Shown here in pieces: positions 8,909 through 40,653 of a stretch of DNA of 64,000 nt. The stretch lies in IMG/VR virus record IMGVR_UViG_3300020120_000082, positions 64,001 through 128,000 of that record; one strand, given 5' to 3'. Below the pieces are notes generated by a model. It was given only the letters and a program-made list of their open reading frames with translations. It did no database searches and was not told the origin of the DNA. The stretch comes from a virus (taxonomy: Duplodnaviria; Caudoviricetes). A program made the position numbers and the translations under genes. Each line of letters starts with the position of its first letter. Positions within the stretch are counted from its first letter, which is position 1.

Positions 8909-9159
8909 TCGAAGAACCCCATAGTCAGGCGGAATGCCAGATCGTCATACAGATCTACCAATAGCTGGCGTTCGCTTTTCGTAAGCTTCCTAAATGTTAT
9001 CCCCTTCTTTGCCTTCTCGTCATTGATCGCTTGCTCAACTAGCGGCACATACTCCAGGATGTCATAGAGAATTCTGGCAGTTTCAACAGGGACGTTCATA
9101 GTAAGAGATTGCTTCTTTTTTATGGACATCGTGTGTATTTTCCTGTTTGTATCTTTCAA
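8905..9159 (-). CDS. Hypothetical protein
   Basis: 84 aa, overlapped by the HNH gene tail. Confidence 0.55.
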   Translation of the reverse strand: MKDTNRKIHTMSIKKKQSLTMNVPVETARILYDILEYVPLVEQAINDEKAKKGITFRKLTKSERQLLVDLYDDLAFRLTMGFFE

Positions 9160-9589
9160 TATATTCTAATCTCCAGGATCCTTGTTCTTTGAATGTTTTT
9201 AGTCTATGGCACTTAACGCATCGTATCTCACATTTTTCCATTTCCTTAATGAACCTATCAATCGGACACCCATGTTGTATTGCTCTAGATATATTGAATT
9301 TCTTATCTTTGATGTGGTCAAAATCCAGAAAGACTATGTCACTTTCTCCACAATCTAAACATGGATGAGAAACAAGGTGGTTGAATGCTATTTCCCTTAG
9401 CCTTTTAACTAGATTGGCGTGCGAGGTTGCTACATTCGATCTGTAATCTGGGTGATCTTCATAAAACTTTTTTGACCTGGCTTGCATACATTTACAGCAA
9501 TTAGATTGATGCCCGTCGGATCTATTTTTGTCCTTGTAAAATTTAGATATATCTTTTGTTTCTCCGCAGTGACCACATCTCTTTTTCAT
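9083..9589 (-). CDS. HNH homing endonuclease
   Basis: N-terminal CxxC...CxxC, then CLDCGE..LDFDH...CEIRCVKCH. AT-richer than its neighbours. Confidence 0.85.
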   Translation of the reverse strand: MKKRCGHCGETKDISKFYKDKNRSDGHQSNCCKCMQARSKKFYEDHPDYRSNVATSHANLVKRLREIAFNHLVSHPCLDCGESDIVFLDFDHIKDKKFNISRAIQHGCPIDRFIKEMEKCEIRCVKCHRLKTFKEQGSWRLEYIERYKQENTHDVHKKEAISYYERPC

Positions 9590-9600
9590 GGGCACCCCTT

Positions 9601-9636
9601 AAAAATGCAGGGAGGCACTACCCTGTGCCTCCCTGC
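9601..9636 (-). terminator. Rho-independent terminator
   Basis: 12-bp stem GCAGGGAGGCAC/GTGCCTCCCTGC followed by ATTTTT on the minus strand. Confidence 0.8.
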
Positions 9637-9941
9637 GGTATGCAGATTTCAAGTCTGCGTTGTATTGGCCTATTAGCTCAACAAGCTGGTTTTGACGTGA
9701 TTTGGGGCAATGTTTTATCACTAAACTACAGGGTCATGCGTTTTACTTCACCACCAGAGACCCCGCGAGGATTTAAACCTCGGATCTTTGCCCGCTGACA
9801 AAAGTCAACTTGTTTTTACCCAGGCCCTGAACTTGTTGGAGCAATAAGCTGAGTGTCAGCAACGTCCCGATTTGGGACCGTTGCTATTGTGACCTGACAC
9901 TGACACTGACGCTGACGCTGACAACAAGACTGCTCCCAAAG
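9601..9941 (-). ncRNA. Putative structured ncRNA with circularly permuted tRNA-like domain
   Basis: T-arm CGAGG-TTTAAAT-CCTCG, looped acceptor-like stem CGGGGTC/GACCCTG, D-arm TA-GTTT-AGTGATA-AAAC, closing GGGCAA/TTGCCC. 5' (GTCAGN)x5 repeats and a 3' terminator. Confidence 0.7.
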
Positions 9942-10691
9942 TTATTCGCCGTCGATATACTTGAAGATCTTTTCGGACAGCTTCAAATCGACAGCCTGGA
10001 TATCGTTACCGCGCTGGCGAGCCTGCTTGACTGCCGCCAGCAATTCATTCAACCGCTCCATGCGATCCGCCTTGTCCTTCGGAGACAGCATGCCGGAAGT
10101 CTTGACGGTCGTCCAGATTCCATCGCGCACATCCACATCGATCAGATTGACCTGGGCTGGATGCCGATCAGTGGCATCGGCCAGGACAATGCGCTCCTTC
10201 ACCTTCTTCGTGCGATAGGTGATCGACGGCGCAGTCTTGAAAATGTCGTTATCCGCATCCTTGGTCCATTCGTCCGTGATGCTGTTGGTGGGAATGGCTG
10301 CGTACACGCTGCGCAGATCTTCCAGGCGGCTCTCCAGATTCAGCAGCGCCGTCACGGTCATGCCCTGGAAAAGCACCGTCCCGCCATTCAGGATGACGTC
10401 AGCAGATGCACCCGGCAGGGAATTGGACGTTTCCTTGGACAAAACCAGGTCCAGGTAGCGGCCATATTCCTTCTGGAGTGTCCCCAGAACGTCCTTCACC
10501 TCGGCGCTGAGCGGCTTGACTTCAGCCGGAAACTTATCGCCCTTCTCTTCGTCCAGAGTCTGATAGGTCTTGACCTGGCCGACAAACAGCGCCTCGCCGG
10601 TTTCGAAAAGCTTCTTGGTTTCAGCCAGGACTTTCTTGCCCCTGATCTTCAGATCGTCTTCAACTGCCAGCAGTTCGTGGATCTTGCCCAT
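9942..10691 (-). CDS. Conserved coiled-coil protein (resembles the DUF7873-type family, from recall)
   Basis: 249 aa, KIHELLAVE...KTYQTLDEE...ALLNLE...TKKV...ATDRHPAQV...SGML...AVKQARQRGN. Own promoter and AGGAGA RBS. Confidence 0.8.
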   Translation of the reverse strand: MGKIHELLAVEDDLKIRGKKVLAETKKLFETGEALFVGQVKTYQTLDEEKGDKFPAEVKPLSAEVKDVLGTLQKEYGRYLDLVLSKETSNSLPGASADVILNGGTVLFQGMTVTALLNLESRLEDLRSVYAAIPTNSITDEWTKDADNDIFKTAPSITYRTKKVKERIVLADATDRHPAQVNLIDVDVRDGIWTTVKTSGMLSPKDKADRMERLNELLAAVKQARQRGNDIQAVDLKLSEKIFKYIDGE

Positions 10692-10731
10692 GTGCGCCTG
10701 ATCTCCTGATTTCCCGTTCGCTATGTTGGTC

Positions 10732-10764
10732 GTAATATTACACCCGGAATGCTTTATCTGTCAA
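10732..10764 (-). promoter_or_regulatory. Sigma70-like promoter with palindromic -10 (GTAATATTAC)
   Basis: TTGACA-18nt-TAATAT upstream of the 249-aa gene. Confidence 0.7.
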
Positions 10765-10767
10765 CCG

Positions 10768-11235
10768 CTATTTGGGATGGTTGCGCCGATAATATTTCCT
10801 GGCATTTTGGATGGCACATTGTTTGCAAGTCCTGGCATATCCATCCCGGATCACATTCGAATGCCCAAATTCAAACAGGGATTTATTCTCGTGACAACGG
10901 TTGCAGTGCCGCAAGCCTAGTTTGATCAAGTCTGCGTTTCGATTGGGACGATGAGCGCCCAGATTATGAGACAGTGACGCAATTGAGTTTATGCTGTATC
11001 CAGTCTGATCGGCTATCTTGTCAATGCCGACTCCGTCTGAATAAAGACGAGCTACGACTTTCCTGATCGGCAATTTCCTGGCCACATTCAGTGCCCTGCT
11101 ATTGCCGATGCGAAGTCGAACCGCTTCCCCGGTAATGCCATAAATATCTGCGATTTGTTTGTTATTCTTGCCCTGGCGGCGAAGTTCAAGCATCTCTTCA
11201 TCACGCTGCAAGTAATAATCTCTATCTGGTCTCAT
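10768..11235 (-). CDS. HTH DNA-binding protein with C-terminal Zn-finger
   Basis: NNKQIADIYGITGEAVR and IDKIADQTGYS HTH motifs; CNRC...CKQC. Confidence 0.7.
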   Translation of the reverse strand: MRPDRDYYLQRDEEMLELRRQGKNNKQIADIYGITGEAVRLRIGNSRALNVARKLPIRKVVARLYSDGVGIDKIADQTGYSINSIASLSHNLGAHRPNRNADLIKLGLRHCNRCHENKSLFEFGHSNVIRDGYARTCKQCAIQNARKYYRRNHPK

Positions 11236-11486
11236 TACCACTCGTTATTGAACCAGCTAAGCGTGGCGTGATAAACACCATCCGACTCGTCGGACATATC
11301 CAGGTCCAGGAACGGGTGGCTGTCGTAAGAGTCGTCTGTTTCGCGCCGACGCAGATGAATACAATCCGGACAGTTCGACAGATGGTCTTTCAGGGTTTGC
11401 TCGGTGAATGCCTTGCCACGTTGGCTGCGATAGCGCCCACAGGGAGAACGCAGCGCCGGATTAGTGGTTGTCTTCAGTTTCGGCAT
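11235..11486 (-). CDS. Hypothetical protein
   Basis: HxxxCxxC, acidic tail. Confidence 0.55.
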   Translation of the reverse strand: MPKLKTTTNPALRSPCGRYRSQRGKAFTEQTLKDHLSNCPDCIHLRRRETDDSYDSHPFLDLDMSDESDGVYHATLSWFNNEW

Positions 11487-40573: not shown

Positions 40574-40580
40574 ATTAAAG

Positions 40581-40653
40581 TGCCCCAGACAGGGATTGAA
40601 CCTGCATCCTTGGAATTAGAAGTTCCACGCTCATCCAATTGAGCTACTGGGGC
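40581..40653 (-). tRNA. tRNA-Arg(TCT)
   Basis: GCCCCAG acceptor/CTGGGGC, D-arm GCTC..GAGC, anticodon arm TGGAA-CTTCTAA-TTCCA, T-arm GCAGG-TTCAATC-CCTGT; no encoded CCA. Confidence 0.93.

Follow-up and report, generated by a model that had tools for sequence, protein, structure and literature searches.

A DUF7873 gene and a structured RNA with a YrlA-class tRNA-like head form a proposed two-part module in a phage genome

Here we describe a two-part module of phage DNA in which a single transcript would hold the message for a DUF7873 protein and, 3' of it, a structured non-coding RNA of ~340 nt. The RNA is conserved, is linked to the DUF7873 gene, and carries a circularly permuted tRNA-like head of the YrlA class of Y RNAs. 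Ro60, the protein partner of YrlA, is not needed for the DUF7873-linked RNA, because it is absent from the phage record and four of the six DUF7873-bearing genomes that lack Ro60 give a strong match to the RNA. There is about an even chance, in our estimate, that DUF7873 and the RNA form a particle in which the protein binds the RNA platform and the head is presented to tRNA factors, a Ro60-free parallel to the known Y RNA particles.

All elements named in the original prediction, which had been made from the letters alone, were found by sequence inspection at the positions it gave, on the minus strand of the window (the whole 64,000-nt stretch analysed, to which all coordinates refer). Sequence and scans agree with its view of promoter, 249-aa open reading frame, ~340-nt non-coding part and terminator as one minus-strand unit. 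A putative sigma-70-like promoter (TTGACA, 18 nt, TAATAT; 10735..10764, read from 10764 to 10735; 10 of 12 matches in a consensus scan) sits within the 76-nt gap after an upstream HTH/HNH-like gene. The DUF7873 gene (9942..10691; 249 aa, Pfam PF25283) is followed by the non-coding region (9601..9941), which extends from the stop codon to the T run of the terminator, holds no conserved ORF and has a minimum-free-energy (MFE) fold with z = -4.5 against shuffles; all three of the long nested helices proposed earlier appear in that fold. A small hairpin, GCAGA-CUUGAAA-UCUGC (9642..9658; MFE fold), precedes an intrinsic terminator (9601..9636) with a 12-bp stem containing nine GC pairs, a 6-nt loop and AUUUUU, and the terminator hairpin is equally placed in the five close relatives whose sequence extends that far. 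The complete architecture of the window RNA is alignable with its six closest relatives, and an ORF-free gap of 300-600 nt lies 3' of the DUF7873 gene in most loci. The RNA is presumably produced and stable. The neighbourhood of the locus consists of replication genes (helicases, RNase H, methyltransferase), and a similarity search of the locus DNA against phage records returned no match.

The circularly permuted head (9702..9795) runs through an anticodon-stem-like helix, a 5-nt variable loop, a T arm, an acceptor, a cap and a D arm. The anticodon-stem-like helix GGGCAA/TTGCCC has 6 bp in the MFE fold (9788-9793 with 9705-9710). Sequence and a pattern scan place the T arm CGAGG-UUUAAAU-CCUCG, with U at position 56, at 9766..9782, and UA followed by the D arm GUUU-AGUGAUA-AAAC at 9712..9728 (the arm itself at 9712-9726). 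Between them (9729..9765) lies a 7-bp acceptor-like stem, CGGGGUC (9759-9765) paired with GACCCUG (9729-9735), capped by a 23-nt loop that begins UCUG, with no CCA, and ends CAU. The 6-bp anticodon-like stem ends in no anticodon loop and runs instead into an internal loop and then into helices P3 and P2, so that the head lacks the 7-nt anticodon loop that processing would restore in a functional permuted tRNA. Because of this missing loop, an earlier suggestion that the RNA serves as a tRNA decoy against anticodon nucleases is unlikely.

R1, a covariance model of the head built from relatives, has its sole match in the window at this site (54.8 bits, E 5e-13), and the structure therefore goes beyond chance. 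Pairing holds in 94.0% of cells across 99 head copies, while shuffled copies reach 60.1% and slid partners 33-50%; two-sided changes in head pairs amount to 718 cells against 209 in shuffles. All seven acceptor pairs covary in the 99 family copies, with 99.4% paired. The elbow pair G19:C56 covaries with A19:U56, the form present in the window: T-loop C56 accompanies D-loop GG in 90 rows, and U56 accompanies GA in four rows out of four, that of the window among them. By this covariation the window RNA has D/T-loop tertiary contacts of the tRNA type. R1 and the strong covariation in the head helices thus bear out the permuted order of T arm, capped acceptor and D arm, with an opened anticodon arm, that had been read from the single sequence. 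NCCA follows the acceptor stem in 63 of the 99 copies; it is absent from the window and from five of six close relatives, where UCUG, UCAG and similar stand in its place. Family members commonly carry another tRNA-like head ahead of the terminator; none was found in the window (R1; no second T arm), and the six closest relatives are likewise one-headed. The window copy is a one-headed, CCA-less variant of the DUF7873-linked RNA.

The 5' part of the RNA is organised around P1, a 7-bp helix whose 5' strand GGAGCAG (9930..9936) pairs with the 3' strand UUGCUCC (DNA TTGCTCC; 9838..9844); the latter is followed by AACAAGUUCAGG, and both are invariant in the seven closest relatives. Of 84 loci, 39 have a P1-type helix (5 bp plus AG/UU), where shuffles give 7.3 +/- 1.9, and its strands come in 26 different sequences across loci. 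The five hexamers GTCAGC GTCAGC GTCAGT GTCAGT GTCAGG (9893..9922) read as (G)UCAG-N, that is, as NAG-N3 in register, and TRF reports a period of 6 with 5.8 copies at 9890-9923. In-phase NAG runs are a family trait, with a mean longest run of 2.34 against 1.49 +/- 0.06 in shuffles. Within P1 also lies an inner hairpin, AGCAAC-G-GUCCC / GGGAC-GUUGCU (9858..9885; sequence and MFE fold), at whose position relatives have a hairpin of other sequence. Hexamers, inner hairpin and enclosing helix all lie where they had been predicted. In the subfamily of the window an alternative pairing, CUUGUUG/CAACAAG, rivals P1; RNAalifold favoured it over P1 on a MAFFT alignment of the seven closest RNAs, from which the structure was recovered in part, because the arms are misaligned there.

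The MFE fold further contains P2 (GGCCU/AGGCC, DNA GGCCT/AGGCC; 9822-9826 with 9667-9671) and P3 (AACAAGTTG/CAGCTTGTT; as RNA, 5' strand AACAAGUUG at 9806-9814 and 3' strand CAGCUUGUU at 9680-9688). Relatives have the P2 variants GGCC/GGCC, GGUC/GACC and GUCC/GGAC, as judged by eye on the alignment. Long-range closure of the head by its flanking strands has moderate support: the head flanks of the window pair better than shuffled flanks (z = -2.4), and the same duplex test across loci gave a mean z of -1.8, with 43% of loci below -2.

R1 matched downstream of the DUF7873 stop codon, on the same strand, in all 80 viral loci, which had been picked by protein similarity alone, and in six of the six closest relatives; conserved structure downstream of the homologs, as had been anticipated, is thus found in 86 of 86 phage-type loci. 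The head of the window RNA begins 147 nt past the gene end at 9942. Among 99 strong R1 matches, which include 20 bacterial loci, the gene is at a median distance of 159 nt, with no match upstream of it. Many large phages, among them cultured Gordonia, Rhizobium, Klebsiella, Vibrio and Ralstonia phages, carry the pair, and so do members of several bacterial phyla; literature searches on YrlA with phage and on permuted tRNA in phage gave no account of it.

At bacterial loci the arrangement is looser. The RNA is not adjacent to the DUF7873 gene in about half of 56 loci (R1), and whole-genome searches of bacteria gave unlinked rather than adjacent copies. In Bernardetia and other Cytophagales genomes, free-standing, multi-copy RNA genes lie at a distance from the DUF7873 gene, and such stand-alone copies have their own upstream regions and terminators, with up to three in tandem. 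DUF7873 is present in 19 of 101 Cytophagales genomes, and a strong R1 match was obtained in 17 of these 19 and in 8 of the remaining 82 (Fisher p 2e-11, uncorrected for shared ancestry), including genomes in which gene and RNA are 75-150 kb apart. These whole-genome counts were taken at E <= 3e-13 and spot-checked, a cut-off used because R1 also scores tandem identical tRNA genes; strong matches outside DUF7873 genomes, where checked, either lay just after Ro60 genes, on RNAs with a different stem, or were themselves tandem tRNA genes.

YrlA (RF02553; Chen et al. 2014, PMC4201824) shares with the window RNA the order of T arm, loop-capped acceptor and D arm, the tRNA-type elbow, and a long closing stem formed by the 5' and 3' parts; it is likewise encoded beside its partner gene on the same strand and found in bacteria and phages. 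The likeness noted in the original prediction is real. Genomes with Ro60 and without DUF7873 yielded five strong R1 matches, four of four examined directly following a TROVE/Ro60 gene, and R1 gives Ro60-adjacent RNAs 59-69 bits; the head of the window RNA is therefore YrlA-class. The Rfam scores also overlap, RF02553 giving relatives of the window RNA 28-40 bits and Ro60-adjacent Cytophagales RNAs 25-46 bits; since the latter also fall short of its gathering threshold of 69 bits, that threshold is strict for distant members. At the locus itself RF02553 matched nothing at E values of up to 10, and TROVE/Ro60 (PF05731) was not found in the 138.8-kb phage record (88% complete) by a search that detected the Deinococcus and Bacteroides controls, so a plain Rfam YrlA match beside a Ro60 gene does not account for the RNA.

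The two kinds of RNA differ in what carries the head. The Ro60-binding stem is characterised by a 5' strand of the GNCGAAN0-1G type (PMC4201824), which by inspection is not in the window; at that position the window reads GGGAGCAGU / UUGCUCC and then the hexamers. By contrast, the Cytophagales RNAs next to Ro60 show GUGUCGUAGAA at the stem (by inspection), and the two that were read (L154, L159) have a GUGUCGUAG-type stem and no hexamers. The platform thus differs according to the upstream gene, with a Ro60-binding stem in YrlA and P1 with a hexamer track in the window RNA, where that gene is DUF7873, whose predicted fold is unrelated to Ro60. Ro60 and DUF7873 tend to share Cytophagales genomes (Ro60 in 13 of 19 DUF7873 genomes, against 13 of 82 others), so that the relation between the two systems may be one of cooperation instead of replacement.

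Residues 1-246 of the 249-aa protein align to positions 1-241 of the 244-position PF25283 (DUF7873) profile at 235.2 bits (E 1.2e-69), a match over the full length that exceeds the curated threshold of 27 bits, and 197 homologs were found. It had been described as a coiled-coil protein; it is helical, but the AlphaFold2 model (pLDDT 87) predicts a helical bundle packed against a beta sheet rather than a plain coiled coil. Foldseek of the model against the PDB gave nothing at E <= 0.001, and its weak Cascade/Cas7 rows (TM about 0.1) were discarded as noise; VIA-align wide reached a best Z of 7.2, to helical bundles only, with no known fold match, and ESM Atlas, searched by shape and features, returned the protein's own family only. 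These three comparisons revealed no recognisable RNA-binding fold. With a pI of 5.5 (family median 5.6) the protein is also acidic, and both properties count against RNA binding. PHROGs holds no family for it, and DUF7873 goes unmentioned in the literature searched. Two copies are predicted to self-associate with a score of 0.47, against 0.00 for the best of three controls, a level attained by 20 of 30 known one-chain pairs and by 1 of 23 proteins solved as single chains; contacts agree by at least 86% between runs, and partner pLDDT is at least 68. The model thus favours two-copy binding, short of proof. Gene-neighbour clustering across DUF7873 loci gave no other conserved partner gene. The top neighbour clusters at these loci are antisense ORFs inside the gene.

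The original prediction had named the upstream protein as partner of the RNA, and synteny, genome co-occurrence and a platform that changes with the upstream gene lend support to this; the binding itself, its site and what the head recruits are steps that we infer. DUF7873, probably as a dimer or higher oligomer, would bind a platform at the 5' end of the RNA made up of the AG/UU-closed P1 and the run of NAG-N3 hexamers. The head would be an L-shaped permuted tRNA mimic, with a tRNA-type elbow, a capped 7-bp acceptor and no anticodon loop, and the particle may present it to readers of elbow and acceptor such as RNase P, the CCA-adding enzyme, modification enzymes and exonucleases, working in parallel to Ro60 with its YrlA Y RNA, without Ro60. 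TRAP binds (G/U)AG repeats and HutP binds UAG repeats, both as oligomers. As an analogy of working, they share with the window RNA a series of regularly spaced NAG triplets, the pattern expected when each repeat takes one subunit, whereas the spacing here is 6 nt and DUF7873 has no sequence or fold likeness to them. More tentatively, and with clear doubt, DUF7873 might be a new kind of RNA-binding protein that oligomerises in register on UNAG hexamers into a Ro60-independent, Ro60-Y-like particle, with which large phages would offer a tRNA-shaped bait or adaptor to host tRNA enzymes or to host defences that sense acceptor and elbow.

Several other explanations have to be weighed against the particle. 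The RNA could be a free-standing tRNA mimic, acting alone or with host proteins, while DUF7873 is only co-transcribed or has another part in its pathway without binding it, for example as an enzyme. An acidic protein with no known RNA-binding fold would suit this, as would the distant multi-copy RNA genes in Cytophagales such as Bernardetia and the adjacent RNA missing at about half of bacterial loci; yet the RNA is directly downstream on the same strand in all phage-type loci, gene and RNA keep company by genome even when unlinked, and the platform switches with the upstream gene, and on balance we think it unlikely. Far less probable is that the structure, lying between stop codon and terminator of one transcript, acts in cis as a 3' UTR element to stabilise or regulate the DUF7873 mRNA, its tRNA-like 3' end blocking exonucleases: bacterial copies stand alone with upstream regions and terminators of their own, and a compensated tRNA elbow pair together with a periodic track exceeds the needs of a stability element. 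That the RNA is an ordinary YrlA Y RNA relying on host Ro60 would agree with its YrlA-class head, with the frequency of Ro60 among DUF7873-bearing Cytophagales and with a phage record just 88% complete; P1 and hexamers in place of the Ro60-type stem, the missing RF02553 match and the four Ro60-less DUF7873 genomes with a strong RNA match make this highly improbable. Direct hexamer repeats amid replication genes might also point to a DNA-level element, either iterons for replication or a tRNA-gene-derived attachment site. Compensatory changes keep the pairing, however, the orientation to the gene is fixed and a terminator follows; moreover, G-U pairs, equivalent to C-A mismatches if read on the opposite strand, are frequent on the minus (coding) strand in head copies, and therefore an RNA fits better. 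The chance of a DNA-level element is minute.

Permuted tRNA-like order also raises the question of processing. Two-piece (circularly permuted) tmRNA genes occur in alpha-proteobacteria and cyanobacteria, with the T arm and 3' acceptor strand preceding the 5' acceptor strand and a segment between, and Cyanidioschyzon merolae has circularly permuted tRNA genes, 3' half before 5' half, which mature to normal tRNAs with an anticodon loop. The window RNA shares the permuted order and intervening segment of the former and the 3'-half-first order of the latter. Unlike two-piece tmRNA, however, it has a true D stem and lacks the alanine identity pair, CCA, a tag reading frame and pseudoknots, and ARAGORN and the Rfam tmRNA models made no call at the locus; unlike the C. 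merolae genes, its anticodon stem opens into long helices, without an anticodon. An RNase P cut 5' of the acceptor strand and 3' trimming to CCA would nevertheless yield a two-piece, possibly chargeable tRNA- or tmRNA-like molecule. The 7-bp acceptor, the NCCA that comes next in most family members and the usual U at position -1 before the 5' acceptor strand speak for it, as does Mycobacterium smegmatis YrlA, whose seven-base-pair acceptor-like stem, common to both RNAs, is cleaved by RNase P and receives CCA (PMC4201824). The window copy differs from the latter in having UCUG where most family members encode NCCA, and most of its close relatives lack CCA too; acceptor sequences vary freely, with no common identity element (G3:U70 is absent in the window, where the third acceptor pair is C:G), and cleavage would be equally possible inside a DUF7873-RNA particle. 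We consider such processing, as the explanation of the RNA, improbable.

Y RNAs with a tRNA-like module have so far been understood solely as Ro60 partners. Here a YrlA-kind head sits on another platform, and an unstudied DUF7873 gene occupies the place of Ro60. Should the two indeed make up a particle, tRNA mimicry would be a module that different proteins reuse, DUF7873 would be assigned a function, and correct annotation would become possible for phage records in which this position is now left empty or given as a stray small CDS or a "suppressor tRNA".

The gene and RNA examined here form a compact unit on the minus strand of the window, in which every element listed by the original prediction was found where it had been placed. 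A sequence scan located a promoter-like site (TTGACA, 18 nt, TAATAT) at 10764-10735, upstream of an ORF of 249 codons (9942-10691), a non-coding stretch of about 340 nt without a conserved ORF, which includes five hexamers at 9922-9893 (TRF: period 6, 5.8 copies), and a GC-rich 12-bp terminator hairpin with a T run (9636-9601). The computed fold of the 350-nt stretch contained the predicted nested helices and scored z = -4.5 against shuffles. The genes on either side both resemble HNH-type endonucleases (HNH/endonuclease VII-like, 9083-9595 and 10768-11241, minus strand, the upstream one also with an HTH domain), and an HNH endonuclease likewise directly follows the RNA copy of Gordonia phage GodonK (locus L161:2814-3257). 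The wider neighbourhood consists of replication genes (UvrD-type helicase, RNase H, DnaB-like helicase, methyltransferase). tRNA-Arg(TCT) at 40580-40653 (minus strand, 67.8 bits) is the window's sole canonical tRNA.

The 249-aa protein is a full-length member of Pfam family DUF7873 (E 1.2e-69), for which no PHROG family was found; its 197 metagenomic homologs are unnamed or "hypothetical" save one, called "chromosome segregation ATPase". Originally described as a coiled-coil protein, it shows no simple coiled coil in a confident AlphaFold2 model (31 sequences, pLDDT 87), but a sheet with a helical bundle packed on top and a long beta hairpin. No convincing fold match outside the family emerged from Foldseek on PDB, an exhaustive VIA-align pass or the ESM Atlas. 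Two-copy modelling supports self-association, as a prediction, with the C-terminal helices as the interface: the score is 0.47 (best of three controls, 0.00), a level attained by 20 of 30 proteins whose solved structures are same-chain pairs and by 1 of 23 whose structures are single chains, and the prediction has contact agreement between runs of at least 86% and partner pLDDT of at least 68.

The RNA is almost certainly a genuine member of a conserved family. Among 80 viral loci gathered on protein similarity alone, most leave 300-600 nt free of ORFs 3' of the gene, and 74 have a T arm within 700 nt of the stop codon, mostly 60-330 nt past it and mostly without an ARAGORN tRNA call on that first arm. 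The parts of this circularly permuted tRNA-like head always come in one order. A variable loop and the T arm lead to the 7-nt 3' acceptor strand, in most cases followed by NCCA; a loop of 3-100 nt then connects to the complementary 5' acceptor strand, after which come UA and a canonical D arm. R1, a covariance model made from 43 head cores, has a plus-strand match 3' of the gene in 80/80 viral loci and in all six closest relatives, which were retrieved separately; its only match in the window is 9702-9795 (54.8 bits, E 5e-13). The conserved downstream structure expected of homologs is thus present, and its pairs covary. Across 99 aligned copies, 94.0% of cells are paired, against 60.1% when shuffled and 33-50% with partners slid, and 718 cells are changed on both sides (209 and 93-241, respectively); fitting the alignment to the model biases the percentage paired towards structure, but not the variety of pair types. 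Two-sided change occurs in at least one copy for 20 of 21 pairs, including all seven of the acceptor.

The six closest relatives (protein identity 50-57%) share the entire RNA, with one head each, a CAU conserved ahead of the 5' acceptor strand, and the terminator wherever the sequence extends far enough. CCA is absent from the window and five of these relatives; of 99 family members, 63 have it. Many other members have a second tRNA-like domain some 160 nt farther along, often an ARAGORN tRNA with an odd anticodon. T-loop position 56 is C in all 90 rows with GG in the D loop and U in exactly the rows with GA there (4/4: the window, L087, L009 and L004). Judged from the aligned sequences, this is the tRNA tertiary pair G19:C56 changed to A19:U56, so the odd UUUAAAU and AGUGAUA loops of the window are accounted for by compensation within the pair, not by decay.

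The arrangement recalls YrlA, the bacterial Y RNA class that partners with Ro60, and the locus might have been a plain YrlA gene served by a Ro60 protein elsewhere. With Rfam 15 the locus had no match, even when E values up to 10 were allowed, and a search of the whole phage record with the YrlA model RF02553 left it untouched. The absence of a Ro60 gene noted for the window extends to the entire record (IMG/VR, 138.8 kb, completeness estimate 88%, the window being its bases 64001-128000), in which no TROVE/Ro60 gene was found. Outside the window, weak YrlA and R1 matches at 132017-132263 of the record suggest tRNA genes there. Among 101 Cytophagales genomes, 19 encode DUF7873, 26 TROVE and 25 have a strong R1 match (E <= 3e-13): 17 with DUF7873, five with TROVE but not DUF7873, and three with neither, of which the two checked were tandem tRNA-Gly genes. 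Of the five genomes with TROVE only, four have their R1 matches immediately 3' of the Ro60 gene, as many as five in a row, and the two arrays read (L154, L159) have a GUGUCGUAG-type stem without hexamers. With permissive filters RF02553 gives these Ro60-adjacent RNAs 25-46 bits and the DUF7873-linked RNAs 28-40 bits, both below its threshold of 69, so the Rfam model under-detects Bacteroidota Y RNAs. Up to five tandem Y RNA-like genes right after TROVE/Ro60 were seen at L153, L154, L158 and L159 (genomes G095, G023, G057 and G101). At L156 (G047:C1:5844900-5850000), in a genome with Ro60 and without DUF7873, the stretch 3' of the TROVE gene contains several permuted tRNA-like modules interspersed with tRNA-Lys genes and one DUF3841 gene. 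On sequence grounds, the head belongs to the YrlA class, whereas the platform near the RNA 5' end and the upstream gene differ and are swapped together between DUF7873-type and Ro60-type RNAs. This joint exchange is our strongest argument for the platform being the part of the RNA recognised by the upstream protein.

The platform begins directly past the stop codon with a helix, P1 (in the window GGAGCAG with UUGCUCC, the last two pairs A-U and G-U). Under strict rules, P1-type helices are found in 39 of the 84 loci (shuffles, 7.3 +/- 1.9), and their strands comprise 26 different sequences. Inside P1, and again 3' of its 3' strand, NAG repeats with a six-base period; the longest in-phase run averages 2.34 (shuffles, 1.49 +/- 0.06), and that of the window is among the longest. 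An inner hairpin varies in sequence between relatives and is always there. In the window's subfamily, CUUGUUG (9923-9929) could instead pair with CAACAAG (9832-9838), which excludes P1. Energy-based folds favour this pairing and its sequence is conserved in the seven-member subfamily, but a single column pair is informative, two of the seven sequences break the pairing, and the substitutions are one in support and two in conflict; it may be an alternative conformer or coincidence.

Whether DUF7873 is the partner, as originally proposed, can be judged from its distribution. The RNA is universal downstream of the gene in phage-type loci, with no other conserved neighbour gene found, and adjacency fails in about half of bacterial loci. 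Genome by genome the two co-occur: strong R1 matches mark 17/19 genomes with DUF7873 and 8/82 others (Fisher p 2e-11, without kinship correction). The association extends to genomes in which they are unlinked. In Bernardetia sp., 135 kb separate the DUF7873 gene from three full RNA copies in tandem (L147/L150, G001:C1:2738599-2739746, minus strand; hexamer-type, with two tRNA-like domains and one terminator per copy), preceded by a 239-aa ORF without a Pfam family (L150:1911-2630), and other genomes carry stand-alone copies with their own terminators. Only one sampled DUF7873 genome lacks an R1 match at E <= 1e-9; at its locus L160 (G094:C67:92000-97000) a weak match (25.8 bits) lies 330 nt past the gene, with a "tRNA-Met" called at 640 nt, and the locus may hold a divergent RNA. 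Ro60 tends to share genomes with DUF7873, being present in 13/19 DUF7873 genomes and 13/82 others (Fisher p 1e-5, without kinship correction), which could reflect cooperation rather than substitution; RNAs of its own, adjacent or stand-alone, accompany each protein. Of the six DUF7873 genomes that lack Ro60, four contain a strong RNA match. Against partnership, DUF7873 is acidic (pI 5.5; family median 5.6) and has no known RNA-binding fold. On balance, a function common to the RNA and DUF7873 is likely.

We found no mention of DUF7873 in the literature searched, nor any description of the pair in work on YrlA or permuted tRNAs in phages. In cultured phages the gene is annotated as a hypothetical protein and the RNA, though matched by R1, is unannotated or overlain by another call. 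GodonK has a small minus-strand CDS, gp205, on top of it (L161:2503-2631) and Klebsiella phage vB_KpM_FBKp24 a "tRNA-Sup-TTA" (L162:2518-2597), both probably mis-annotations.

We propose that a single transcript would yield both protein and RNA, and that DUF7873 dimers or higher oligomers would bind P1 and the hexamer track; for this particle as a whole, the arguments seem to us evenly balanced. The suggested role as a tRNA decoy against anticodon nucleases is unlikely, because the RNA has no anticodon loop. It is more plausible that the targets recognise the elbow or acceptor: the head would mimic the acceptor/T/D half of tRNA and engage factors recognising that half, candidates being RNase P, the CCA-adding enzyme, modification enzymes, exonucleases and defences that attack the acceptor end.
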